Part shown: positions 15,918-53,556 of the stretch, piece by piece
Numbering within the stretch: the stretch's first letter is position 1
How the letters are laid out: the number at the start of each line of letters is the position of its first letter
Source: Shigella phage ESh15
Direction: 5' to 3' (one strand)
DNA: 64,000 nucleotides
Sequence record: ON528725
Notes under the pieces: generated by a model
What the model saw: only the letters and a program-made list of their open reading frames with translations
The model's database searches: none
What the model was told of the DNA's origin: nothing
Made by a program: the position numbers and the translations under genes

Positions 15918-16458
15918 ATAAAAAATCCAAACTAGGCGAATCGCTAACAACTTCCTTCTTTTCAGCCCCAGGAGCTTTATAAGCGGATTCTTCATAATGC
16001 GTCATTTTATCGTAGATGTCTTGAATAAACGTTTCATCTACCAACGCTACCATATCATCGTCATGACTGTCGTAGACATTATGAACGAAGTAACTATATT
16101 TCTTTGCAACTTCCTTACGTTCTTTTTTGATACGTTGGACAAAAGCATTAAAACAAGCTCGAGTTATGTATGCATGTGGGTTATTGTACTTAGTTTCGTC
16201 GAAATTATGAAGTCCCTTAATAGAGGCTTCAATCCCATCTGCAATCATCTCCTGCTTCCAAGACTGGGTATATCCTGAAAAGTTGAAACGTTTGGACAGG
16301 CCTTCGGCGATAAGCATAATTGCTAAACCGATGGTATCATTCTGACGAATAATTTTGTTTGGGTCTTTATTATTTAAGAGCTCCTTTTTCCACTCGATTA
16401 TAGCGGCGAGAAGCTCTTTATTATTCACATAGTTATTTTTAGGTTTTTGTTCAGTCAT
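15901..16458 (-). CDS. 55: late-transcription sigma factor
   Basis: 185 aa; [10 protein letters not shown]...[52 protein letters not shown] matches T4 gp55. Confidence 0.95.
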
Positions 16459-16613
16459 AAGTACCTCTTAGCTCAATTCATAGGTCTATTATATCATAAT
16501 ATTTAGAGACCTATCTTAAAGCACGAGATACTATCAAAGATACATAACTTTTATAAAGTTGACGACTTAAAATTCACCAAACTTTTCTTCGGTTATAGCA
16601 ATTCGAGATAGTT

Positions 16614-18426: not shown

Positions 18427-18605
18427 AGTTTAATTTCCTTCGCGATTGAACAGAAGATACCACGGTCACAAAGCAGTTCACCAATTTCTGGATATTTGAT
18501 TGAACGATACCAAACATCCAGGCTTGAAATTCTGGTTATCCGTACTGCATTACCGTTGACAGAATAGTACTGGTCAACCTTAATTTCTTTATCTTCAATT
18601 GTCAT
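18423..18605 (-). CDS. hypothetical protein (60 aa)
   Basis: internal Met with GAGGAAAATAAA RBS; GTTTAC -35-like element just upstream. Confidence 0.4.
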   Translation of the reverse strand: MTIEDKEIKVDQYYSVNGNAVRITRISSLDVWYRSIKYPEIGELLCDRGIFCSIAKEIKL

Positions 18606-18740
18606 TTTATTTTCCTCTATAGTAGTTGGTTTAATCTTAACACATCTATTGAGGATGTAAACTGTTTTATGAAAATATTTTTGATTTGAGAGGGGCACAA
18701 GGAGATAGTGAAGTGAAGATTCCAATGGATTATATTAGAA

Positions 18741-21991: not shown

Positions 21992-22461
21992 TTTAAACTC
22001 TTTCTAAGCTGCTTTTTGAATGAAGCTATTAATTGTGTTTTAGTATCAGATTCATTATATTCAAATCCTCTTTGAAGCATCTCGGTCATCATTTCCTCTT
22101 TACCTAGTCTTGAGAACTCTTTAGTTTTGTCTGGAACAAAATTAGGATGGATATTATTATCAGAATAATCTTGTTTCAAATAAGCAAGAAGAGCTTCAAG
22201 CCATTCGAGGTAATCAACGTTTTGACCTTTCAAACCGGAACGGTTGAACTTATGCTTCATTTGACCTTCTGCTGCGTTGCACAGATTACAGAGTAATCCA
22301 CGAACTCTACCGGCTTTTGGCCCGTTTAATTCATGGTCGTGGTCAAGATGGTTACCTTGAACATCAGGGTCTAATTCACGGTGGCAAATAGGACACTTAC
22401 CGTTCTGTGCATCATAAAATTTTTGTTTTTCTTCTTTATATTTTGCGCCTGATAATAACAT
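21988..22461 (-). CDS. 49: endonuclease VII (Holliday junction resolvase)
   Basis: 157 aa; CPICHREL...HLDHDHELNGPKAGRVRGLLCNLCN Zn-binding His-Cys box. Confidence 0.9.
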   Translation of the reverse strand: MLLSGAKYKEEKQKFYDAQNGKCPICHRELDPDVQGNHLDHDHELNGPKAGRVRGLLCNLCNAAEGQMKHKFNRSGLKGQNVDYLEWLEALLAYLKQDYSDNNIHPNFVPDKTKEFSRLGKEEMMTEMLQRGFEYNESDTKTQLIASFKKQLRKSLK

Positions 22462-22496
22462 GATAAACCCTTACCTTAAATAGATAAGGGTATTTA

Positions 22497-22910
22497 TTAA
22501 CTTAAACGTCTTTCTAAATATTCAATGTATTCTGCGGCTGCTTGCATCAGGTTACCTTCATAGCCGTCGTTATTTTCTTGTCCGGCTAATTTAGCTAATG
22601 CATAAGAAATTCGTTCACCTTCGAATTCGCCAAGTCCACCATCACAAACTACTTGGTCAATTTCTTCGAGTTCATCTATTGAATGGGATTCCCAGAAGCA
22701 CCAAAGAGAAGTATCACGGTCATAGATGCAAAGTTTCTCACCTGTGTTCAACATCACTTCGATAATGCCATGGTCGCCATAACCATCTTCGGTAGTAGTA
22801 CCAATTACCTTGATGATTGTTCCTTTCTTTAATTCAGGAAACTTGACTTGTAGTTCTTCGTCTTCTTTAACAATCTTGAACCATTTACCGCGAGTTTCAG
22901 AAATATTCAT
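22497..22910 (-). CDS. hypothetical protein
   Basis: 137 aa from internal Met; ORF-track extension to 23048 unlikely. Confidence 0.4.
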   Translation of the reverse strand: MNISETRGKWFKIVKEDEELQVKFPELKKGTIIKVIGTTTEDGYGDHGIIEVMLNTGEKLCIYDRDTSLWCFWESHSIDELEEIDQVVCDGGLGEFEGERISYALAKLAGQENNDGYEGNLMQAAAEYIEYLERRLS

Positions 22911-32644: not shown

Positions 32645-32878
32645 CTACCGATTGTGTTTTAAATGTTGATAAAGTTCTTCAACTTGTTTAGGGTCCAAAA
32701 CAATTAAGTCATTTTCTTGGCGAAGATAAATCCATCCCTTATCCCCAGGACCATTTTTACAAAACATCACCACCATATCATCATCTTCAGCGCTTTCAGG
32801 TAAAAGTTCAAGTACACCGTCTTCAGATTTTCCAGTATAATCGTAAAGCATAATGTCCTCACATAATCTCGTTAACAT
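32645..32878 (-). CDS. hypothetical protein
   Basis: 77 aa ORF. Confidence 0.4.
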   Translation of the reverse strand: MLTRLCEDIMLYDYTGKSEDGVLELLPESAEDDDMVVMFCKNGPGDKGWIYLRQENDLIVLDPKQVEELYQHLKHNR

Positions 32879-33038
32879 ACATTTGCAATTCGGTGTGGGC
32901 GTCGGCCATCTTTTTCATAGCTCTGTTAATGTCGATGTCTCCATCTTCGCAACCATGAGCATTTTCCCAATCGGATACAGAATTAGCATACTCTTCAATC
33001 AAAAACATCAACTTAGAAATCTTTTCTTTACGTGTCAT
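32859..33038 (-). CDS. hypothetical protein (59 aa)
   Basis: internal Met with GAGGAGAA RBS. Confidence 0.4.
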   Translation of the reverse strand: MTRKEKISKLMFLIEEYANSVSDWENAHGCEDGDIDINRAMKKMADAHTELQMYVNEIM

Positions 33039-33042
33039 AACG

Positions 33043-33094
33043 TTCTCCTCTAGTAAGTAAAGACTACTATAACACAACCTGAGGAGAAGTAAAC
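33043..33094 (-). promoter_or_regulatory. promoter enclosed by SD/anti-SD inverted repeat
   Basis: minus-strand GTTTAC then TTCTCCTC ... 8-bp perfect partner GAGGAGAA that is the downstream gene's Shine-Dalgarno. Confidence 0.5.
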
Positions 33095-33139
33095 TGATAG
33101 ATGCCAAAAAGCCCCAACCATAAGGAAGGGGCTAGTAAA

Positions 33140-33442
33140 TTAGATAGATGTAGGCTCTAATTTTATTTTCATGAACTCAGCAAATTGTCTGGCAGTTTTT
33201 ATGCCTTGTTCATGACATTCAAATGCATCATCACAGGGGCTATTTTTGTAATGCTTTGCCATATACTTATAGAATTTTTCAGAATTCTCGACATTTTGAA
33301 TTTCAAACAAAGTATATACGTTTTTAATCCCTGATTCCATAAAGTTATCAAAATATGGGTCAATATGTGCAGTACCAACGATAGGAGTTGTTGCTGCAAA
33401 AAACCCCAGCATCGCTATGACAGCTATCGCTCTTAAGGCCAT
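33140..33442 (-). CDS. rI: lysis inhibition regulator, periplasmic
   Basis: 100 aa; signal peptide plus DPYFDNFMESGIKNVYTLFE...CDDAFEC pattern as T4 RI. Confidence 0.8.
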   Translation of the reverse strand: MALRAIAVIAMLGFFAATTPIVGTAHIDPYFDNFMESGIKNVYTLFEIQNVENSEKFYKYMAKHYKNSPCDDAFECHEQGIKTARQFAEFMKIKLEPTSI

Positions 33443-33454
33443 ATAGGCCTCCTG

Positions 33455-33667
33455 TTAATTTTGGCCAGTATTTATTTTTCGCCTTTGGACGGCCTTAACA
33501 TCTGCGAGGTATTTTTCCAGCTTGCGCTTGCGTGTATAATCAGCTTTAGAACCAGTTTGACGGATATCCTCGTTTAAATGAGAAATAGAATGTCCTAATT
33601 CTCTTCGGATTTCATCCAATTGGGTTACAGTAAGATTACGAAGTTGTCTTTCGTTTAATTGCTGCAT
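33455..33667 (-). CDS. hypothetical protein
   Basis: 70 aa ORF between tk and rI. Confidence 0.45.
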
Positions 33668-33694
33668 ATATACCTCTTGGTTAGATATTAGTAT

Positions 33695-34276
33695 TTATAA
33701 CAACCCTGTCAAATCATTCCAATGCTTCCGGCATAATGACACGTATCTATCGGTATCACCAATTTCAATTTGACTGCCATCTGTAATTGGAAGTCCGTCT
33801 TCCGTGACTCTAGCTACCATTGTGGCCTTTTTACCACAATGACAGACACCTTTAAGTTCAACAAGCTTATCGGCAATAGCCATTAATGCTTGAGAACCTT
33901 CAAATAGATTACCTTTAAAATCTGTTCGTAGTCCATATGCCATTACTGGCACATTGTATACGTCAACAATACGACTAAGTTGATACACCTTTTCAGTAGT
34001 TAAGAACTGAGCTTCGTCAACAAATACACAGTGAATATCCTTTTGTGCCGCAGCCCATTTATAGAATTCAAAGACATCCATATCTTCGGTAATTATATTG
34101 GCATCCTGACGAATACCAATACGAGAGACTATTTCACCTTTTGAATCACGAGTATCAATAGCCGGTTTAAGAACTAATACACCCATGCCACGTTCTTTAT
34201 AGTTATGTGCGGCAGTAAGTAATGAAGCAGACTTACCAGCGTTCATAGCGGCATAGGTAAAAATTAAACTAGCCAT
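33695..34276 (-). CDS. tk: thymidine kinase
   Basis: 193 aa; P-loop YAAMNAGKSASLL, C-terminal CHCGKKA...CRKH zinc motif. Confidence 0.92.
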   Translation of the reverse strand: MASLIFTYAAMNAGKSASLLTAAHNYKERGMGVLVLKPAIDTRDSKGEIVSRIGIRQDANIITEDMDVFEFYKWAAAQKDIHCVFVDEAQFLTTEKVYQLSRIVDVYNVPVMAYGLRTDFKGNLFEGSQALMAIADKLVELKGVCHCGKKATMVARVTEDGLPITDGSQIEIGDTDRYVSLCRKHWNDLTGLL

Positions 34277-34285
34277 AAGAGTCCC

Positions 34286-34468
34286 TTATAGTGAATTCAC
34301 ATAGTCAATGAGTTCTTGTTCTTTCCTGTCAAATGATTCCAACAATGCTTGATATTCTTCATCTGTTAAAGGAGCATATTCATCGTACGCATTGGTGGCT
34401 GCTTGCTCATCCAATAGGTCATGGATAAGTTCGAACAGTTTAGCTTTTTCTTCTTTAGTCAATTTCAT
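34286..34468 (-). CDS. hypothetical acidic protein
   Basis: 60 aa ORF. Confidence 0.4.
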   Translation of the reverse strand: MKLTKEEKAKLFELIHDLLDEQAATNAYDEYAPLTDEEYQALLESFDRKEQELIDYVNSL

Positions 34469-34959
34469 TTAGGTTCCCAATCAACAATCACAATTTCTAG
34501 TTTAGTGGAATACGTATCTAAAATCTCTTCGATGACATCCCAGTTTCCACCACCAATACCTGCACCAATTCTTGGCATATAAATTACAGGCTTTGTTATC
34601 TTATTCTTTCCGAATTTATTTAATTCTATTATACAATTCATTAAAGCAGAGTACTCAAAATTAGGTCCCGGCTCAAACTGTGTATAAAGATTAAAGCAAT
34701 AAGCTTTATGGGTCTTAAAATATTTTTCATAAACCGAATAAGACCCGAGTTTAGACTCGTCTCCGAATTCGGTTTGAAGTTTATCGGCTTCCAGAATTTT
34801 TGGATAAGCCTTTGCTAATTGACCTGCTACACCAGCGCCCATTGTATGAAAACAATTACACCCATGAGCAATATTATTACCTTTAGAAAACAGGGCGACA
34901 ATATCGCCCTTGATATAGTTTTTAATCACTTGCTGCAAGTCCTCTAGTATAAGAGTCAA
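34465..34959 (-). CDS. possible macro-domain-like protein
   Basis: 164 aa; Gly-rich segments HGCNCFHTMGAGVAGQ and GAGIGGGNWD; assignment tentative. Confidence 0.3.
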   Translation of the reverse strand: MTLILEDLQQVIKNYIKGDIVALFSKGNNIAHGCNCFHTMGAGVAGQLAKAYPKILEADKLQTEFGDESKLGSYSVYEKYFKTHKAYCFNLYTQFEPGPNFEYSALMNCIIELNKFGKNKITKPVIYMPRIGAGIGGGNWDVIEEILDTYSTKLEIVIVDWEPK

Positions 34960-35269
34960 CTAGACGGTCCACCATAGAATTGCATGCTGCCTTATCTTTA
35001 GGTTCCGCCACCGAGCATTCTAATATTTGCCATTTTTTATAGTATCTTTTAATTAAGGTAGACGCCTTGAACCTACTAGACGCCCCATCTTTTTCTCCGT
35101 CTTTATATGCGTATAACAATTTTTGTGAAAAATCTACTTTACACTCTTGACTTTTACCACAATAATCAGACGCCGTTCTGTTTGTATACTCCGTTACATC
35201 AGTATATGTAGTATTAGCAAGAGCGTTAAATGAAACCAAGCCAACTATTAAAGCTAACATTTTGGTCAT
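34922..35269 (-). CDS. secreted hypothetical protein
   Basis: 115 aa with N-terminal signal peptide. Confidence 0.45.
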   Translation of the reverse strand: MTKMLALIVGLVSFNALANTTYTDVTEYTNRTASDYCGKSQECKVDFSQKLLYAYKDGEKDGASSRFKASTLIKRYYKKWQILECSVAEPKDKAACNSMVDRLVDSYTRGLAASD

Positions 35270-35808
35270 TCTTTTATTTCCAGTAGTTTATTTGATTTAA
35301 GGTAATTAGCCTTTTCTAGGACTTCAGAAGCATATTTACTTCCAGCACTTGTCTTCCATCCCGCATTATATGAGGATATGGCTTTCCTTATATCCCCGTT
35401 ATGTATATTTAACCAATAAGAAAATTCGATATAAGCCCATCTTGCTGAATTAGACCGCTTAGATAGCATTTTCTTAATTTGGGCATCAGTCATATTATAA
35501 CCAAGCTGGTTAATTCTTGCCCTCATTGTTGGTAGATAGTTTTGGAACATTCCATACGCATGGTGACCTTTCTTATCTTTAAGATTAATACCGGCGGATG
35601 ATTCTTGCCATAGTATTGCGGCCATTATGTATCCAAGTCCTTTCTTATGCATATTTTCATGCGTTTTAAATTTTCCGTCCTTAGAAAACTGTTCCCCAAA
35701 CTGATAAGCATAATTCAAGTTATCGAGTTGGACATTACTAAAAGTATGCTCGGAGCTATGTGCTGATAACGAAAGAGCAAATAGACCAGCGAGTAGTGCT
35801 TTTCTCAT
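35266..35808 (-). CDS. secreted lytic transglycosylase-like protein
   Basis: 180 aa; signal peptide; WQESS ... YGMFQ motifs typical of SLT-type domains. Confidence 0.5.
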   Translation of the reverse strand: MRKALLAGLFALSLSAHSSEHTFSNVQLDNLNYAYQFGEQFSKDGKFKTHENMHKKGLGYIMAAILWQESSAGINLKDKKGHHAYGMFQNYLPTMRARINQLGYNMTDAQIKKMLSKRSNSARWAYIEFSYWLNIHNGDIRKAISSYNAGWKTSAGSKYASEVLEKANYLKSNKLLEIKE

Positions 35809-35816
35809 GTTTACCT

Positions 35817-36275
35817 CTAGATTTTAATCACTGCTTTAGAAGCTTTTCCTGGTAGTCGTTTACTGTTAATAATAGCCATTCTGCATTGAAGAGTCTTCAT
35901 TTTGAATGCCGGATTTTCGCGACAAACTGTAAGTCCTAACCAAAGATTTCCATCAGTTATTTCTAAACGGCCTGGGCGATATTCGACACCTTCGACAAAA
36001 TCTTCATCAACATCTGGACGTGCCGGCATTGATAAAAATTCTGCAACTTCTTTAACATGATTTTTTACTTTATGAAATAATTCAAAAACGTAATTCTCAT
36101 CTATTTCTCTCTGGATGGCACGATCTAAGAGATGTTGAGAATACTTGATATGAAAGCCTGGTAGTCCAAGAGACTTTGCAGCATCTTTTATACCGGCATT
36201 TATTTTGCGGAACTCCGTTTCAAAGATTCGACGGAGTTTATTACGACGGATAAAAACTTCCGAATTGATAGTCAT
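35817..36275 (-). CDS. regB: sequence-specific endoribonuclease RegB
   Basis: 152 aa; MTINSEVFIRRNKLRR...YSQHLLDRAIQREIDE matches T4 RegB. Confidence 0.85.
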   Translation of the reverse strand: MTINSEVFIRRNKLRRIFETEFRKINAGIKDAAKSLGLPGFHIKYSQHLLDRAIQREIDENYVFELFHKVKNHVKEVAEFLSMPARPDVDEDFVEGVEYRPGRLEITDGNLWLGLTVCRENPAFKMKTLQCRMAIINSKRLPGKASKAVIKI

Positions 36276-36281
36276 TTTGAT

Positions 36282-36332
36282 TTCTCCTCTAGTTGACAGG
36301 TCTATAGTAACACAACTAGAGGAGAAGTAAAC
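36282..36332 (-). promoter_or_regulatory. promoter enclosed by 13-bp perfect SD/anti-SD inverted repeat upstream of regB
   Basis: minus-strand GTTTAC-TTCTCCTCTAGTT-(19 nt with TACTAT)-AACTAGAGGAGAA-ATCAAA-ATG. Confidence 0.55.
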
Positions 36333-36336
36333 TACT

Positions 36337-36546
36337 TTATTCTTGGAACGGTGTGAGTTTTCCAGCTATCGAACAAATTTCTACCATCGCAGGATAAAAC
36401 TCTTTCACTTGTTCAAGGCGCTGGACAGCGTACCGCATTTCGCCTTCTTCAAGACAAGCCGCCTGGTCATCGAGCAAATATTTGTGGTAACCTGTACAGG
36501 CTTCGCTAATGATACGTTGGAATTCTTGCAAACTTTCAATTTTCAC
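36337..36546 (-). CDS. hypothetical protein
   Basis: 69 aa, apparent GTG start. Confidence 0.35.
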   Translation of the reverse strand: MKIESLQEFQRIISEACTGYHKYLLDDQAACLEEGEMRYAVQRLEQVKEFYPAMVEICSIAGKLTPFQE

Positions 36547-36812
36547 TAGTATTTTTCCTCGGGTCTAAATACTGCACGACAGGCCCACATGCTGGCTTCT
36601 TTTAGATGTTGCTTAGCGTACTTAAGAGCCTGCACTGCATCCATATCTTCTTTGGTTTGTTGCTCTGTTTCATTTTCTTTCAAGATATATGCTTCTTCAA
36701 TCAGAGCATCAAACATCAATCCAAGACGGACTTCAGCATCTTTAATAGCGTTCACTTTACTAATTTTATCATCGGTATGCGGCTTGTAGCCTTTGATGTC
36801 TTCAATTGACAT
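36546..36812 (-). CDS. hypothetical protein
   Basis: ORF-track 36546..36980; start likely at an internal Met (MSIEDIKGY...), coordinate approximate. Confidence 0.35.
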   Translation of the reverse strand: MSIEDIKGYKPHTDDKISKVNAIKDAEVRLGLMFDALIEEAYILKENETEQQTKEDMDAVQALKYAKQHLKEASMWACRAVFRPEEKY

Positions 36813-37026
36813 AAGGAATTTCCTCATCGGTGGCAAGGTCATATTCGACCAATTGGATAGGCTCATTAATACCATATCCACGTACAGTGATATCAGTTGT
36901 CGGATAGTTTCCAGTAATATCACCCATTCTAAATGCTTCAATGAATGATTGCTCGCCTGAGCAACTAAACCAGGCGGCAAAACATTTTAAAACATCTTCA
37001 GACCCTTCTATAATCAATTTAGCCAT
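36802..37026 (-). CDS. hypothetical acidic protein
   Basis: 74 aa ORF. Confidence 0.4.
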   Translation of the reverse strand: MAKLIIEGSEDVLKCFAAWFSCSGEQSFIEAFRMGDITGNYPTTDITVRGYGINEPIQLVEYDLATDEEIPYVN

Positions 37027-37388
37027 TATAGACTCTCAGTAAAGGTACGAGCGATAACGTCGCGCTGCTGTTCCGGAGTCAGAGAGTTAAAGCGAACTGC
37101 ATAACCGGATACACGGATGGTCAGTTGCGGATATTTTTCCGGATGCTTAACTGCATCTTCCAGAGTTTCGCGACGCAGAACGTTAACGTTCAGGTGTTGA
37201 CCACCTTCAATTTTAACTTTAGGTTGATGTTCAATTTCAATTTCACGGGCATTCAAACCGTAGAAAATTTCCGGGTCTACAATAGCGTCTTCTTTAAAAG
37301 TCTTAGAGACAATAATCCGGGCTTGAGTACCGTCTTCAAAATAAATAGTGCCTTTGTGTGTGCCTTCAAGAATTTGATATGCTTTCAT
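37026..37388 (-). CDS. autonomous glycyl radical cofactor (GrcA/YfiD-like)
   Basis: 120 aa; C-terminal glycyl radical domain ...[32 protein letters not shown]. Confidence 0.8.
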
Positions 37389-37394
37389 ATAACC

Positions 37395-37703
37395 TCAATT
37401 AGAAAATAAATTTATCCAAGTTTTTTCTTTAATCAAAAATGGGTCGGAATTAAACGCCATTAAACTTTGAGTGGTTAATCCCTTAAATGGCCCATCAATA
37501 AATTCCATTTTGAAATGCGGAATACTAGTCATCAACCGTGCATTAGGAGCAGTACAAAGAACCTGCTGCCCTGCGAACGGACCTTTAGTCAAACGATATC
37601 GTTTAGGTTTAAAATGGTAAATCTCGTAATTTTCTACAAGAGCCCTTTTATTGCATACTGGGCTGTTATAACAATACTCAAAAACTTCAATAGTGGTCAT
37701 CAT
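37395..37703 (-). CDS. hypothetical protein
   Basis: 102 aa ORF. Confidence 0.45.
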   Translation of the reverse strand: MMTTIEVFEYCYNSPVCNKRALVENYEIYHFKPKRYRLTKGPFAGQQVLCTAPNARLMTSIPHFKMEFIDGPFKGLTTQSLMAFNSDPFLIKEKTWINLFSN

Positions 37704-38239
37704 TGCATTCCAATCACAAAAAATTGAGGACGAGCATTACCGCCTATGCAATATTTGCTTTTGCAACAGTGTTGGACTGTTTTAATATGTACATTGTAAA
37801 TCTTATCCATATCAGGAGCTTTAATAGGCTCGTCAATTATATACAGAATACGAGAAAGCGTTAATCCACGGAATTTAGAACCTTCATTGCCAATAAAACT
37901 ACGAACAGAATCAGTAAATAAACGGAATCGAATATCGTCGCTAGAATAACGAGAAAATTCTTTTTTAATGTTGCCAACAGAAATTTTAGCATAAGCTGAA
38001 GTATTAGAAAGAACAATAACTGTTCCACCATCATACAGCCAATTAACAGCGAAATTAGTTACTGCGGTCGATTTACCTGATTGTCTGCCGCCGTCTAAAC
38101 GAAGTGTACAGTACTGCTTGAGTACGTCTTCAAATGGTGGGACATAACCGTTCTTACAAATTTCTTCTACTCTAGCATCAGAATGGTGTGTAAAAGCATT
38201 CATCAGGGATAGATAAGGTCCAGTTAAAAATGTTCTCAT
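37700..38239 (-). CDS. P-loop NTPase (possible small kinase)
   Basis: 179 aa; Walker A GGRQSGKST. Confidence 0.45.
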   Translation of the reverse strand: MRTFLTGPYLSLMNAFTHHSDARVEEICKNGYVPPFEDVLKQYCTLRLDGGRQSGKSTAVTNFAVNWLYDGGTVIVLSNTSAYAKISVGNIKKEFSRYSSDDIRFRLFTDSVRSFIGNEGSKFRGLTLSRILYIIDEPIKAPDMDKIYNVHIKTVQHCCKSKYCIGGNARPQFFVIGMQ

Positions 38240-38412
38240 TTAGTTTCTCTTAAGGTTGGGGCCATTCCGTGGCACATGTTAGGTCCTTCGACTCGCTATG
38301 TAAACCCATTACCGCACTTGGGCTCGACCTTATTACAGGTTGGAAAAGGTACATCACTCAGAGGACTCGACGTTCGTGAGGAGAGGTTGCGTTTCCCTTT
38401 ATTAGGCAAGAA

Positions 38413-38742
38413 TTATACTCTAGGCTTTTGAGCTTGTTTGGTATTGGATTCCCACGCTGCTTTAGTAATTTTGTTAGCGGCATAGCCAAAGGCATTAGAT
38501 AGAACACCTTTAGAGTTGAATACATCCAATCCAATAAGTACACCGGCTGCGTTAAATTTAGGAGCAAAGTATGCATTAGTTTTAGAAAGAGCTTTTTTCA
38601 ATTCAGGGTCTTGAACCAAGCCATCAAAAACGCCTTTACCATTTACTTTATATGTTACTTTAGGATTTTTACCTTCTTCGATAGCAGCTTTCTGTTCCGC
38701 AGATAATGTAACTTCAGTGATAAATTCTTGATACGTTTTCAT
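38413..38742 (-). CDS. internal protein with capsid-targeting sequence
   Basis: N-terminus MKTYQEFITE matches the T4 internal-protein targeting sequence. Confidence 0.7.
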   Translation of the reverse strand: MKTYQEFITEVTLSAEQKAAIEEGKNPKVTYKVNGKGVFDGLVQDPELKKALSKTNAYFAPKFNAAGVLIGLDVFNSKGVLSNAFGYAANKITKAAWESNTKQAQKPRV

Positions 38743-38783
38743 ATGTTTCCTTTAAATGTAAATAGGCCTAAGTATAGGCCTTA

Positions 38784-39362
38784 TTAATTACCACGGGCCG
38801 CATTAGCGACGGCGTAAGCGTACTGAACATTAGCGTCTTTAAACGTACCTTTAGATGTATCTATTTCTGCCTTAAAGCCACCTTTAGCCATAACATCGGC
38901 AAATTCTTTACGGAAAGCCATTGCATCAAGACCTTTCCATGATGATTTATGCTTGGCAAATTCAAGACCAGCGTAGTTGACAGCTTTAGCTAATTTATTA
39001 TCAATAACCCATTTACCGGCTTTAGGCACAAACTTCGGGCCTTTTTGTTTAGAGAACAGTTTTAAATTCCAGCGACGAAGGTCACTGTCGGCTTTAACAA
39101 AAGCTGCGTCTAAGTTACTAGCAACAACATCTTCAATATGAGCAAATTTAAGTCCGTCAACTTCAATATTTAGATCGTTACGCCAGCGTAGTCCTTCCCA
39201 AGCGAAGGCTTTAAAATCAGAAGCCTTTGTAGCTAAGTACCGTTCAATAGGAGCTGTTTTAGGGTCAAAGCCGTTTCCGCCACGATAATTCCACTCGTCC
39301 TTATTAATGCCTTGAGCTTTTCCTGCAAAGGCCTCGGCGATAAATTCTTTATATGTTTTCAT
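38784..39362 (-). CDS. internal protein with capsid-targeting sequence
   Basis: N-terminus MKTYKEFIAE. Confidence 0.7.
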   Translation of the reverse strand: MKTYKEFIAEAFAGKAQGINKDEWNYRGGNGFDPKTAPIERYLATKASDFKAFAWEGLRWRNDLNIEVDGLKFAHIEDVVASNLDAAFVKADSDLRRWNLKLFSKQKGPKFVPKAGKWVIDNKLAKAVNYAGLEFAKHKSSWKGLDAMAFRKEFADVMAKGGFKAEIDTSKGTFKDANVQYAYAVANAARGN

Positions 39363-39388
39363 TTTTGTTCCTATTCTTTTAATTTATG

Positions 39389-39703
39389 TTATTCTTTAGG
39401 GAAGTTTTTAGAGTATGCGTCATAAAGTTTATTACCGATGCGACGGAAGACTTTAGCTGCAAAACGGTTTTCAGGGTTTTTAATCATGATTTGCATCATG
39501 TAAGTTCCTGCATCCGAAAGAGCTTCTTCATAGTACCCGTTAATTTCTTTAAGAGTCCTACGTTTACCACCAGGACCATCAACAGTAATTTTCCATTTAC
39601 CTGTAGAAGTGCGGCTCGGTGGCTCAACTTGTTCAATCCAAATATAACCACCTTCAACGCGTTGGTTGGCGGATTCTGCAATAAATTCTTTATACGTTTT
39701 CAT
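39389..39703 (-). CDS. internal protein with capsid-targeting sequence
   Basis: N-terminus MKTYKEFIAE. Confidence 0.7.
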   Translation of the reverse strand: MKTYKEFIAESANQRVEGGYIWIEQVEPPSRTSTGKWKITVDGPGGKRRTLKEINGYYEEALSDAGTYMMQIMIKNPENRFAAKVFRRIGNKLYDAYSKNFPKE

Positions 39704-39766
39704 TTTTGTTTCCTTGTTTGTTTTGATAGAGTAATTATACCATATTAATACTTAAGCGTAAACAAT

Positions 39767-40027
39767 TTAAGCTTTACCGCCAGAAATAATTCCGAAGTTG
39801 TTAAAATCGTATCCAATATCGTCAACATCTACTTTAGGACTTGCTACAACATAAGCAATTTCACTACGTTTTGCATAGGTGTTGATTTCTTTACCATCGC
39901 CACCTAAGAAAGAATACCCATTACGTTTTAATGAGCCAAAGTCTTCCTCATCACCAATGAAAGCTTTAACTTTAAATTTTGGGTCTTTGGCATCTGCTTC
40001 AGTGATAAATTCTTGATACATTTTCAT
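39767..40027 (-). CDS. internal protein with capsid-targeting sequence
   Basis: N-terminus MKMYQEFITE. Confidence 0.65.
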   Translation of the reverse strand: MKMYQEFITEADAKDPKFKVKAFIGDEEDFGSLKRNGYSFLGGDGKEINTYAKRSEIAYVVASPKVDVDDIGYDFNNFGIISGGKA

Positions 40028-40033
40028 TTTTCC

Positions 40034-40447
40034 TTAGTAAATTGATTTACCATAGTATTTGTACCAAGTCGGACGTTGAGCAATTTTTTCATCTAAGCGT
40101 GCTTGACTTATCGCAATGGACGCTTCGGACGGGACATAATTATTACGAAATTCGGCAGGGATGTCGGAAATATCCTGGACAGTCGTGTCCTTGATTTTGA
40201 AACCACGTTTCAAACATTCAGCGATTAGCTCGATTTGGCGTAAACGTAAAAATTCGAGTTTGTCGTAAAAGAATGTTACGTGACCCTTGCCTAAGATAAA
40301 TGTTGGAGAGATTTTAAAATCCTTTACACGTTTACCGTTTTGAACATGTTTACGGACTGCACCAAATACGCGTGGTAATTCACGATACTCAGCCATAAGA
40401 TGTTGGTCGGTCAGTTCAGAAACAAGTGTTAAATTGATACGAGTCAT
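40034..40447 (-). CDS. denV: endonuclease V (pyrimidine dimer DNA glycosylase)
   Basis: 137 aa from [34 protein letters not shown], matches T4 DenV. Confidence 0.92.
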
Positions 40448-40450
40448 AAT

Positions 40451-40504
40451 TTCCTCCAAGTAGTTGATGAATGTATAGTATCAAAACCCTTGGAGGAAGT
40501 AAAC
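40451..40504 (-). promoter_or_regulatory. promoter enclosed by 10-bp SD/anti-SD inverted repeat upstream of denV
   Basis: minus-strand GTTTAC-TTCCTCCAAG ... CTTGGAGGAA-ATT-ATG. Confidence 0.5.
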
Positions 40505-40505
40505 A

Positions 40506-40787
40506 CTATTTTTCTGAAGCGCCTGAAATATATTTTTCAAGACGTTGTTTCATCAGCGAGCCGTTCTTAGCGATTTCTTCCGGTTTATCGCACATACGCA
40601 ACAACGCTTCAAGCTTAACGATATCACTGGTGCGCTCAAATTTGCGAGTATCTATCTTACTGGCAAGTTCAGAAATACGTGCTAATAGACTTTCAGCTTC
40701 GACCAAAGCTGCACCTAGCTTAGTTGCAAATGTGTCAGTAGCTTCGTTAAGAATAGATTCTGATAAAAATTCACTATATGTTTTCAT
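40506..40787 (-). CDS. internal protein with capsid-targeting sequence
   Basis: N-terminus [10 protein letters not shown] from internal Met; ATGA overlap with lysozyme stop. Confidence 0.65.
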
Positions 40788-41272
40788 ATATACGCTTTCC
40801 AAGTTCCTGTTTTAAATGTTGAGATTACGCGTTTCGCGCGATTAGGTGTCTGACGATACCATTTAGATTGGGCTAGATTTACTGCCGCTTCGTCCCAACG
40901 TTTCTGTTGAAGCATACGAAGAGAATTAGTAAAACCGGCGACGCCTGCTACACCCATTTGGAAGACCATATTGACTAATGCACATCGACGAACTGCGTCT
41001 AAAGAATCATATACCGGTTTAAGTTTAGCATTACCCAAGATTCCGCGAACGGCTTTATCAACATCTTCATTAAATAGCTTTTCAGCCTCATCAAGGGTAA
41101 TTGTACCGTTGCATTTACGACCGATCATTCTGTCAAGTTCAGTTTTAGCTACGGCTAAAGACGGGTTCTTTGTTACCAAATGGCCTATGCCAATAGTCCA
41201 AAAGCCTTCGGTGTCTTTGTATAAAGTCAGTCTAAGACCTTCGTCATTACGAAGCATTTCAAATATATTCAT
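40784..41272 (-). CDS. e: lysozyme (endolysin)
   Basis: [33 protein letters not shown]4 lysozyme catalytic E11/D20/T26 context. Confidence 0.95.
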
Positions 41273-41273
41273 A

Positions 41274-41299
41274 ATACCTCCCACGTTTATAGGAGGTAT
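41274..41299 (-). promoter_or_regulatory. RBS-sequestering hairpin upstream of lysozyme with late-promoter-like loop
   Basis: minus-strand AUACCUCC-UAUAAACGUG-GGAGGUAU then ATG; loop carries TATAAA. Confidence 0.55.
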
Positions 41300-41306
41300 T
41301 TATTAC

Positions 41307-41765
41307 TTATAGGAGGGTAGTGAGCACCTTATATAATGATTTGCCCATCACATATTCCCATTGAGAAGGTTTAATTAAAGCGAATGCATCAAATTCAGGA
41401 ATTTGTCGTCCGTCTGGGAATGTATGATAGGAATTACAAACACTGTTTCTGAATTGCTCGTGCTCTACAGGGATGGTATATAGGAACAGATGAATATTCT
41501 TATTGTCTGAGTAATGATGTTCACCTAGGTCTTTCAGGAAGGCAGGGTCATATTGTGTAAACCCAGTTTCTTCTTCGCATTCACGAATAGCGGCTTCGAT
41601 AGGAGATTCGCCGGGTTCGACACGGCCTTTAGGAATATCCCACCGATGAGCTAAAGAACCTTTAGGACGAGAACCAGTTACACGCCCCATGAATAACTCT
41701 TTATCTTTTGTCATGAAGATAATACCGGCTGATAGTTCTTTCACTTTATTTTTCTTACTCATCAT
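41307..41765 (-). CDS. nudE: Nudix hydrolase
   Basis: 152 aa; Nudix box GRVEPGESPIEAAIRECEEETG. Confidence 0.85.
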   Translation of the reverse strand: MMSKKNKVKELSAGIIFMTKDKELFMGRVTGSRPKGSLAHRWDIPKGRVEPGESPIEAAIRECEEETGFTQYDPAFLKDLGEHHYSDNKNIHLFLYTIPVEHEQFRNSVCNSYHTFPDGRQIPEFDAFALIKPSQWEYVMGKSLYKVLTTLL

Positions 41766-46143: not shown

Positions 46144-46705
46144 GGATTAAATTGTTAGTGAAATTAGGACTAACAACCATAGTTTCATAAAGCGCATCAA
46201 TAGCACTTAAAGCATCAACTCTTTTAAGCAAAGGCTTGCCTTCATACATAGTTTCAGAATCTACGATTAGCGTAAAGTAATATTTTTTATTATCGACTAG
46301 AACTTCAGTATCGATATAAAACATGTTAGACCTTAAAAGCTTATCTCTAAAACCATAATAATCTTCAGAGCGTTCGCTGATATATTCCCATTCAGTGTTT
46401 AAACAACAAACAGACCATGTAGGAGCAACGAAATCAGTGAATCTAATATCATGGTCTGCAACTAGTTTAGCAATAGCTCCGATATCATGAATCATAATAC
46501 CTGGGGCTAATAAAGATTTTCTGCTATGGCTAGCCGTTTTCTCAGTAGTCTCATAAGAAGACGACCAGTACCATTTACGTCCGGTTGCAACATATCGTAA
46601 TGAATCAACTAAAGACGTAGGTGGATTTACCTTATCTCGGAACTCTTCGAACATTGAGTCAATATCATTATTTTGGTTTCGCATGTTAACTCCTTTATTA
46701 TCCAA
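46082..46705 (-). CDS. hypothetical protein
   Basis: 207 aa ORF. Confidence 0.5.
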   Translation of the reverse strand: MDNKGVNMRNQNNDIDSMFEEFRDKVNPPTSLVDSLRYVATGRKWYWSSSYETTEKTASHSRKSLLAPGIMIHDIGAIAKLVADHDIRFTDFVAPTWSVCCLNTEWEYISERSEDYYGFRDKLLRSNMFYIDTEVLVDNKKYYFTLIVDSETMYEGKPLLKRVDALSAIDALYETMVVSPNFTNNLILEQFIMECREYVKANPVHAN

Positions 46706-46735
46706 AAAAGGAGGACCGGAGTCCTCCGTATTATT

Positions 46736-52001: not shown

Positions 52002-52078
52002 TTTATTTCCTTGAGGTCGTTTATTTGATAGGATGATAGTATCACACCGTCATCCTTATGTAAACTGTTTTGTGAAAA

Positions 52079-52768: not shown

Positions 52769-53503
52769 TTACCTTAAGATTGTTTCAATTTTAGAATAAA
52801 GCTCTTCTAAAGAGCCGTCGTTTGTAATAACTAAATCGCCTTCTTCAATAGGCAACCCAGCTTCTGTAATATGTTTATCTGTGGATTCCATACCGGAGCG
52901 AACCACATGAATAACTGTAGCACCCATCGCTCTAGCGGTTTCCATTTCATGGACTTGACGTGTATCGGTTACGACATAGTAATCGAAATCACTTCCAATA
53001 TAATCCATATAGTTTAATGCAAAAAGCTTAACCCAATACATACGGTCAAATAAATTAACGACAACATCCGTACCGAGGGCTTGCATAAGACGGCGGATTG
53101 ACCATGTGTCGTTGATATTATTTATAGCTTCACGCAGGGCTTCATATGGTTTAATATCTAGATATGAATATCCACCTTCTAACGATGATAATACTTTAAC
53201 ATTATTAATTGGTAAATATTGACTTTGTAAATAAATTAGCGTTTCTTCCAATAATTCAATAACATCCAACTTATTGAGATTTAATGGTGTTTCACGATCG
53301 TATCCAACACCTTCAAAGTATTCGTATTTCAACTCGGTGAATACATCAGGGTTTTCAGCATGTTTACGACCCCAGGCTATTGCTAGAGCGTCTTTAATCG
53401 GATATGCTAATTGATATTTTACAGATTTAAAGTTTGAATTGATGTAATCAGCAGTAGTGTCTTTACCACTACGTTTGATGCCACTTAAAAAGATTAGCTC
53501 CAT
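52769..53503 (-). CDS. 1: deoxynucleoside monophosphate kinase
   Basis: 244 aa; P-loop FLSGIKRSGKDTTADY; C-terminus matches T4 gp1 pattern. Confidence 0.9.
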   Translation of the reverse strand: MELIFLSGIKRSGKDTTADYINSNFKSVKYQLAYPIKDALAIAWGRKHAENPDVFTELKYEYFEGVGYDRETPLNLNKLDVIELLEETLIYLQSQYLPINNVKVLSSLEGGYSYLDIKPYEALREAINNINDTWSIRRLMQALGTDVVVNLFDRMYWVKLFALNYMDYIGSDFDYYVVTDTRQVHEMETARAMGATVIHVVRSGMESTDKHITEAGLPIEEGDLVITNDGSLEELYSKIETILR

Positions 53504-53556
53504 AGGTTTTCCTCATATAATTTATGAGCGATTATAACATACGGAGCTAGAAGCGA

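Follow-up and report, generated by a model that had tools for sequence, protein, structure and literature searches.

We studied an 8.4-kb region within a 64,000-nucleotide stretch of Shigella phage ESh15 (ON528725; the whole stretch is called the window), in which promoters lie inside inverted repeats that include the Shine-Dalgarno sequence (SD) of the next gene. By sequence comparison the region is about 97% identical to T4-like phages, and the closest records (APCEc01, phiC120 and mar005P1) belong to Mosigvirus, T4 relatives of the RB69 type. Its minus strand carries the lysozyme gene e, denV, regB, tk, rI and a mobD.2a-like open reading frame (ORF) of 59 aa in the same order as in T4. An earlier reading of the letters, referred to here as the original prediction, had placed repeats of this kind upstream of regB, denV, e and the mobD.2a-like ORF (which starts at 33038 and is called the 33038 ORF), and we find all four where they had been placed, on the minus strand. 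As had also been predicted, the sites at regB, denV and the 33038 ORF share one layout, with a GTTTAC -35 hexamer, a pyrimidine-rich 5' arm just after it, TGn, a -10 hexamer that falls in the hairpin loop, a gap of about 10-15 nt after the -10, a purine-rich 3' arm that is the SD, and an ATG 3-6 nt further on.

The spacing of 17-18 nt between -35 and -10 and the TGn before the -10 identify, by consensus, a T4-type early promoter that is predicted to be strong. The minus strand of the window holds about 22-25 such early-promoter cassettes with a near-fixed geometry, the distance from -10 to ATG being 27-28 nt. Early promoter, SD and start codon therefore form a compact repeated unit in the window, as they do in the promoter-early stem-loop (PeSL) cassettes of T4-type phages. 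Transcription from the cassette's own promoter was taken to start about 7 nt after the -10, a position set by consensus only, and relative to this predicted +1 the 5' arm ends 16-19 nt upstream in the window's cassettes.

The longest helix is that of regB, whose product is 78% identical to the T4-type protein. All features of this cassette lie on the minus strand. The GTTTAC hexamer, of the T4 early-promoter type, occupies 36327..36332 and is adjoined within the spacer by the 5' (anti-SD) arm TTCTCCTCTAGTTG at 36313..36326, which ends 16 nt before the predicted start near 36297. The -10 hexamer TACTAT (36304..36309), extended by a TGT before it, is part of the hairpin loop. The 3' arm CAACTAGAGGAGAA (36282..36295) holds the SD together with a GGAG and is followed by the ATG at 36275-36273. 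The original prediction had called a perfect repeat of 13 bp here; the repeat is perfect and one base pair longer, giving a 14-bp stem. When the RNA that reads through this cassette from upstream is folded, its energy corresponds to z = -3.2 and only 1 of 200 dinucleotide shuffles folds as well, while none of 1000 shuffles of the arms reaches the observed score.

The denV cassette, also on the minus strand, repeats this anatomy with a different helix. Here GTTTAC lies at 40499..40504, the 5' arm TTCCTCCAAG at 40489..40498 in the spacer, the -10 hexamer TACTAT with TGA upstream at 40475..40480 in the loop, and the 3' arm CTTGGAGGAA, which is the SD, at 40451..40460, with the ATG at 40447-40445. 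The predicted 10-bp repeat was found and is perfect. The read-through fold has z = -3.1, with 3 of 200 dinucleotide shuffles folding as well, and 20 of 1000 arm shuffles reach the observed score.

As a measure of masking we used ddG, the cost of opening the region from SD to AUG in the read-through RNA minus the same cost in an RNA that starts 7 nt after the -10. Over 125 SD-bearing starts in the window the median ddG is 1.2 kcal/mol, with 90th and 95th percentiles of 5.1 and 8.1 kcal/mol. The regB start ranks first at +15.2 kcal/mol and denV stands near the 95th percentile at +8.1 kcal/mol, as does e; the 18 other early cassettes in the window range from -1.4 to +2.3 kcal/mol. In absolute terms opening the SD-AUG region is predicted to cost 11-18 kcal/mol for regB and denV. 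Their read-through RNAs fold at -19.5 to -21.9 kcal/mol with the SD paired in the minimum-free-energy (MFE) folds, and the leaders made from the cassettes' own promoters fold at only -1.6 to -2.5 kcal/mol and are predicted to be unstructured. The proposal that the SD would be free on own-promoter RNA and sequestered on read-through RNA is thus borne out at regB and denV in predicted folds and opening costs. By length, too, the stems are outliers: among 150 SD-bearing ORF starts on both strands, the longest perfect stems that contain the SD measure 14, 10, 9 and 8 bp (regB, denV, e and the 33038 ORF), and most other starts have stems of 2-5 bp. Individually, regB, denV and e are non-random; the 33038 site does not exceed chance.

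A further member of the family precedes the gene 55.6 homologue. In this minus-strand cassette (18613..18662) the -35 lies at 18662-18657, the -10 hexamer TAAGAT at 18639-18634 and the ATG at 18605, and the arms are TCCTCaATAG (18655-18646) and CTATaGAGGA (18622-18613). The helix is weak in the window, with a ddG of +6.1 kcal/mol (near the 90th percentile of the 125 starts), and its significance is marginal, given that 20 of 200 dinucleotide shuffles and 79 of 1000 arm shuffles do as well. In relatives, the same locus has a 13-bp helix with other arms, TCTCCTCACGTGTT and AACACATGAGGAGA. The original prediction that gating is used at several genes thus has good support at regB and denV and can be extended to the 55.6 homologue; the 33038 ORF is left unsupported.

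In T4 itself, 13 of 36 early-type cassettes have a ddG of at least 5 and the rest lie between -3 and +3.5, a bimodal distribution. The masked cassettes precede motB.2, modB, 55.6, nrdC.8, regB and denV, and also e.8, alt.-3, 30.8, alc, rnh and a start in the ndd.4 region. Counting one start per ORF, masking is found at 10 of 20 cassette-preceded starts and at 23 of 164 other starts (Fisher p = 5e-4). At four of 12 gated T4 cassettes (55.6, alt.-3, alc and rnh) the SD has neither GGAG nor GGAU, and the same holds for the 55.6 homologue in the window.

To examine the conservation of the helices, we collected the regB and denV loci of relatives from IMG/VR. T4 regB has the same layout built from other arms, UUUUCCUCUUGACUG and CAGUUAAGAGGAGAA, which include two G.U pairs, and T4 denV does so with UCUCCUGUAG and CUACAGGAGA. 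Every regB relative down to 56% protein identity (range 56-98%) has an SD helix of 10-18 bp with the 5' arm in the promoter spacer, and at least five different sequences of such spacer-arm helices occur. Two architectures are found among the denV relatives. In the spacer type, the 5' arm occurs as TTCCTCCAAG, TCTCCTGTAG, CTCCGTTTG or TCTCCTGTG; in the second, the 5' arm is formed by the end of the -10 and the discriminator, for example AUGAUGUCUUCC, and the 3' arm reaches from the SD into the AUG, as in GGAGGACAUCAU. Relative to the predicted +1, the 5' arm ends at -16 to -25 in the spacer type and at -1 to +2 in the second, so that two independent designs both keep this arm at or before the predicted start. 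SD pairing is kept at the same loci in Mosigvirus, Tequatrovirus, Gelderlandvirus (STML-198), Moonvirus (Merlin), Jiaodavirus (KPV15) and Winklervirus (CHI14), and Enterobacter phage CIP9 contributes variant arms as well. The SD helix is absent in the most distant RegB relative (40% identity) and in the denV loci of jumbo phages, and a scan with Rfam covariance models gave only two chance-level matches (E about 0.9).

The regB and denV relatives together provide 28 distinct arm pairs, and arms pair better with their own partner (mean helix score 10.9) than with swapped partners (6.6). Pair counts were taken from register-locked arm segments, since a plain MAFFT alignment lost the SD register. 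In a frame anchored on the helix, the two positions on the loop side of the CTCC:GGAG core are Watson-Crick pairs in 16 of 16 cassettes while taking 3 and 4 pair types. Overall, 87% of cells are paired, compared with 71% after shuffling (0 of 500 shuffles reach the observed value) and 40-53% in slid registers; 9 of 13 helix pairs have changed on both sides, and the covariation score is 0.44 compared with at most 0.09 in slid registers. At regB, denV, e and 55.6, these comparisons show compensatory changes that preserve the helix from genus to genus. Cassettes may also move between loci. The regB cassette of the window (36282-36332) is 84% identical to the T4 denV cassette and 71% identical to the T4 regB cassette (T4 being L002, 9345-9450), and in the helix it differs from T4 denV by a compensatory change of C:G to G:C. 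This likeness is consistent with a swapping of promoter/SD cassettes between loci.

Based on these data, we propose that translation of these genes is set by the promoter from which the RNA originates and that the same hairpin shields the GGAG from RegB, a reading to which we assign a probability of roughly 60%. Polymerase starting at the cassette's own promoter would begin about 7 nt after the -10, past the anti-SD arm, giving a leader of about 21 nt that is unstructured and leaves the SD free. RNA from promoters further upstream would hold both arms, and a helix of 10-14 bp would bury the SD and, in some variants, the AUG too. The terminator scan predicts nothing terminator-like immediately before the regB or denV cassettes, and early promoters of the same direction are present further upstream. 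The early promoter of T4 regB is documented and is shut off at 2-3 min, and RegB cuts the SD of its own message (PMC3014915). Translation of the gene would then be limited to its own immediate-early transcripts, whose synthesis would stop within 2-3 minutes and which RegB would subsequently inactivate by cutting the free GGAG; later read-through RNAs would carry the cistron silently, with their GGAG protected from RegB. Together, these steps would produce a sharp immediate-early pulse of synthesis, a mirror image of what the hairpins of e, soc, 49 and I-TevI do late. The analysis shows the sequence anatomy, the predicted energetics, the compensatory conservation and the enrichment among T4 early cassettes; we infer where transcription starts in this phage, whether and how much read-through RNA is made, and how translation and RegB cleavage are affected.

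A number of points weigh against this reading. The start sites on which it turns are consensus predictions throughout, and a literature search for T4 start-site datasets found none. Covariation shows selection for pairing, not for masking, and the register-locked alignment leans towards structure because its register was built from the helices themselves. The asymmetry between G.U and A.C pairs, which bears on whether selection acts on RNA or on DNA, is not significant under neutral scoring (6 versus 3) and under symmetric scoring favoured neither level. About 10 of 25 cassette-like sites have an equally strong hairpin around the -10 that leaves the SD free. In the window by itself, SD masking is found at 3 of 14 early cassettes and 7 of 84 other starts (p = 0.15), so that the enrichment at early cassettes is seen only once T4 is included. 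At the 33038 ORF, the predicted 8-bp repeat is present but is not above chance when taken alone (z = -0.46), as 61 of 200 dinucleotide shuffles and 114 of 1000 arm shuffles do as well. These last two results, like the marginal site at 18605, are what one would expect if pyrimidine-rich early-promoter spacers and purine-rich SDs paired by accident. As a general account, accidental pairing strikes us as very improbable: most cassette spacers have no CTCC, regB, denV and e are individually significant, and chance is already refuted for these three by the compensatory covariation, with own partners pairing better than swapped ones. Finally, the upstream ORFs have stop codons that end only 6-10 nt before the 5' arm (10 nt at regB, 7 nt at denV and 6 nt at e). 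A terminating ribosome covers roughly 6-10 nt beyond the stop and could partly open the helix. Taken further, this would be translational coupling, in which the ribosome that terminates at the upstream ORF melts the base of the helix and frees the SD, so that downstream translation needs upstream translation. We give coupling very little weight, given that opening the base of the 14-bp regB helix would still leave at least 10 bp and that T4 e lies at the same short distance from the nudE stop, yet its hairpin lowers translation of early transcripts about 100-fold (PMC3014915).

The two remaining alternatives accept the helix and dispute its purpose. Sequence by itself does not separate translational gating from RegB shielding, a role that the original prediction did not consider, and shielding could be the primary role: the hairpin would hide GGAG on long polycistronic RNAs and keep delayed-early and middle transcripts from being cut at these junctions, with loss of translation as a side effect. 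The masked SDs of regB, denV and the 33038 ORF do contain GGAG, and the arrangement is seen only in those Tevenvirinae that have early cassettes of the regB type; neither the most distant RegB relative nor the denV loci of jumbo phages have it. However, shielding cannot be the only role because neither GGAG nor GGAU occurs in the SD region of a third of the gated T4 cassettes (4 of 12) or of the 55.6 homologue in the window. An exposed GGAG SD is seen at many of the window's cassettes that are not gated, and the late-gene versions at e and 49 use the same design on RNAs that, according to a review, resist RegB anyway; we therefore regard shielding as an unlikely primary function. A similarly low probability attaches to the idea that these are generic promoter-embedded stem-loops of mobile cassettes, of the PeSL type, selected for attenuation or termination of transcription from upstream, for stabilizing the 3' ends of upstream mRNA or for recombination of cassettes, with the overlap with the SD incidental in some of them. 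The hairpins that bracket the -10 (about 10 of 25 sites, z about -3.5) fit this idea, as do the apparent exchange of cassettes between loci, the promoter-overlapping stem-loops described in the available parts of the PeSL papers (PMC2839356, PMC4122927), and five denV/regB relatives (L015, L016, L031, L034 and L036) that have both hairpin types or a weakened SD helix. Intrinsic terminators or attenuators were considered for regB and denV and rejected: the hairpins are followed by A-rich sequence, the terminator scan made no call, and without a U tract they are not intrinsic terminators. Generic stem-loops would also not account for the enrichment of masked SDs at T4 cassettes relative to other starts. 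Locus specificity points the same way, in that regB, denV and 55.6 keep SD pairing, locus by locus and in six genera, despite new arm sequences and a relocated 5' arm, which favours masking. The second architecture, with its 3' arm running into the AUG, likewise favours masking and would be hard to explain except through translation.

The -10-bracketing hairpins form a distinct class on the minus strand, at cassettes whose -35 lies at 52065, 51710, 51330, 47400, 44822, 43530, 32645 and 28195. Their repeats measure 7-13 bp, with the 5' arm in the spacer and the 3' arm covering the final 2 nt of the -10 and continuing to about +5. For instance, the cassette with its -35 at 32645 has UUGGUAGGACUAU-guuaua-GUAGUCCUAUCAA (DNA TAGGACTAT-gttata-GTAGTCCTA), with an MFE of -18.7 and z = -3.5; MFE values of -18.7 and -20.2 and z about -3.5 were obtained for this class. 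They are probably the "AGNA-loop-TCNT" stems of T-even PeSLs (PMC4122927). Because they leave the SD free, promoter-embedded hairpins must serve something besides SD masking.

The cassette of the 33038 ORF (33043..33094, minus strand) has its -35 at 33094-33089, the -10 hexamer TATAGT at 33071-33066 and the ATG at 33038, and its 8-bp perfect repeat consists of TTCTCCTC (33088-33081) and GAGGAGAA (33050-33043). It is a weak member of the set, with a ddG of 4.3 kcal/mol (below the 90th percentile of the 125 starts). The cassette is 76% identical to that of regB. Its relatives are only near-identical, and the site is therefore without independent support. Reading the sequence, we noticed a hairpin resembling an intrinsic terminator, GCCCC...GGGGC followed by a T run (33106..33132, minus strand), 11 nt upstream of the -35; the terminator scan had missed it, its loop being longer than 8 nt. 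Such a terminator would limit read-through into the 33038 cassette. We also considered a plus-strand gene that would use the mirrored GAGGAGAA as its SD and rejected it, as the closest start on the plus strand is a TTG some 16 nt off and the region is transcribed leftward in T4.

The fourth predicted site, at e, is of the late-promoter kind, and its comparison with T4 lysozyme in the original prediction is apt, the window's e being the orthologue of the gene with the known T4 hairpin. On the minus strand, the 5' arm AAUACCUCC(UAU), also AATACCTCC(UAU), spans 41289..41300 (core AAUACCUCC at 41300-41292), and the 3' arm (GUG)GGAGGUAUU, also (GUG)GGAGGTATT, spans 41273..41284 (core 41281-41273) and includes the SD up to the AUG, the ATG lying at 41272-41270. 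The stem has 9 Watson-Crick pairs, or 12 with G.U pairs, and is highly non-random (fold z = -5.0, 0 of 200 dinucleotide shuffles, 8 of 1000 arm shuffles). Three late-promoter-like boxes lie at 41284..41311 on the same strand: TATAAGTA (41311-41304), AATAAATA (41304-41297), which adjoins the 5' arm and is kept in relatives, and TATAAACG (41291-41284), which runs from the three final bases of the extended 5' arm across the loop to the 3' arm's first base. None of the three is a perfect TATAAATA, of which T4 has two. A late-like TATAAA in the loop, as originally predicted, is thus present, but the box that relatives conserve is (N)ATAAATA next to the 5' arm; most keep (A/G)ATAAATA there, and the arms of the e hairpin covary.

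A second classic late-promoter hairpin, beyond the sites listed by the original prediction, appears in the window at gene 49, which encodes endonuclease VII (89% identical to T4). This hairpin (22467..22498, minus strand; ATG at 22461) has a late-like AATAAATA box at 22498-22491 that adjoins a 10-bp stem formed by ACCCUUAUCU (22491-22482) and AGGUAAGGGU (22476-22467), with an MFE of -13.5 and z = -2.9, and was recovered by the ddG scan of SD-bearing starts.

Three further minus-strand structures were noted near start sites in the window. Upstream of the e.5 homologue (46684-46730), a terminator-like GGAGGAC-uccg-GUCCUCC is followed by UUUUUU. Together with neighbouring bases, this U run is able to form a second hairpin with the SD AAAGGAG (MFE -15.4, z = -2.1). 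At gene 1, a dNMP kinase homologue (53503-53545), the hairpin CUCAUA/UAUGAG directly follows TATAAT and overlaps the SD, while a longer helix extends to the AUG (MFE -14.3, z = -2.6); here, too, the masking of a start site may be linked to a promoter. Lastly, at the start of gene 55, which encodes the late sigma factor (16458-16520), TATAAT lies between the two copies of an 8-bp repeat, ATAGGTCT...AGACCTAT, and the ddG of 9.6 is high in the general scan.

T4 is the textbook case of timed gene expression. However, it is only partly understood how the phage restricts early protein synthesis to the first minutes, or why RegB spares most middle transcripts that have the same GGAG, and a 2022 omics study listed translational control of early mRNAs as an open question. 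An anti-SD arm inside the early promoter would be a simple mechanism, testable by mutation, that joins promoter choice, translation and RNase sensitivity, and it predicts which genes are immediate-early only. We tentatively extend the proposal to the Tevenvirinae as a whole, at somewhat under even odds: a third to a half of their early-promoter cassettes, according to the way of counting, would encode an anti-SD arm, and translation as well as RegB cutting of the SD would be set by the promoter of origin. If true, this is a general rule that has not been formulated before, under which a defined set of genes is limited to an immediate-early pulse, and it would help to explain why the same GGAG is cut in early but not in middle transcripts. 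An arm inside the early promoter also illustrates the amount of regulatory information that fits into a mobile cassette of 60 bp, and the design lends itself directly to synthetic biology as a part that is translated only if transcribed from its own promoter. Reportedly, an abstract by Valerie in 1986 already mentioned potential stem-loops preceding regB and neighbouring ORFs, and for this reason the existence of a stem-loop at T4 regB may, as a bare observation, be old; the generalization and its evolutionary support may not be.

The arrangement can be compared with several known systems. RegB targets have GGAG in early SDs, and this motif is also present in the SDs that are masked at regB, at denV and at the 33038 ORF; T4 RegB cuts its own SD, and RNA structure is known to block the enzyme. 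The likeness is incomplete in that some gated SDs have no GGAG or GGAU. In the accessible literature, no source ties the RegB resistance of longer transcripts to an arm encoded by an early promoter.

There is also a resemblance to the PeSL cassettes of T4-type phages (Arbiol 2010, PMC2839356; Comeau 2014, PMC4122927) and to the IP-locus repeats of Repoila 1994. These too are units of early promoter, SD and ATG with fixed spacing and a stem-loop, present in many copies in variable early regions; they are exchanged between loci, as the cassettes here may be as well, and the accessible text of the PeSL papers treats them as terminator/promoter units that drive modular shuffling. The 33038 cassette, with a terminator directly upstream, has the classic PeSL layout. 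However, as far as the accessible text goes, the PeSL stem-loop is described as terminating or attenuating transcription and as located either upstream of the promoter or over the -35 to -10 region, with the SD a separate 3' element, and that text makes no mention of SD pairing or translational masking. The "AGNA-loop-TCNT" stems of PST and T4 match the -10-bracketing hairpins, not the anti-SD/SD helices.

A further parallel is with T4 e, soc, 49 and I-TevI (also I-TevII, I-TevIII, segB and Aeh1 mobE), in which a helix pairs the SD and/or the AUG, only RNAs that begin upstream contain the 5' arm of that helix, and a promoter at or inside the 5' arm gives a shorter, translatable RNA. The window's e and gene 49 are direct orthologues with arms that covary among relatives and with near-consensus late boxes (AATAAATA, TATAAACG). 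By contrast, regB, denV, 55.6 and the 33038 ORF carry a sigma-70 early promoter in place of the gp55 box TATAAATA, their arm lies in the promoter spacer or in the -10/discriminator, and the predicted timing is the opposite, with translation in the first minutes as against late infection. Because their promoter is of the early GTTTAC/TGn/-10 type, they are a variant of this family and not strict members of it. A 2010 review stated that the genes known for the hairpin mechanism "are all late genes" (PMC2988022). For e and gene 49 the hairpin is already known from T4; the early-promoter version would be what is new, and the sequence and the comparisons made here support it as a probable extension of T4 promoter-in-hairpin control from late to early genes.

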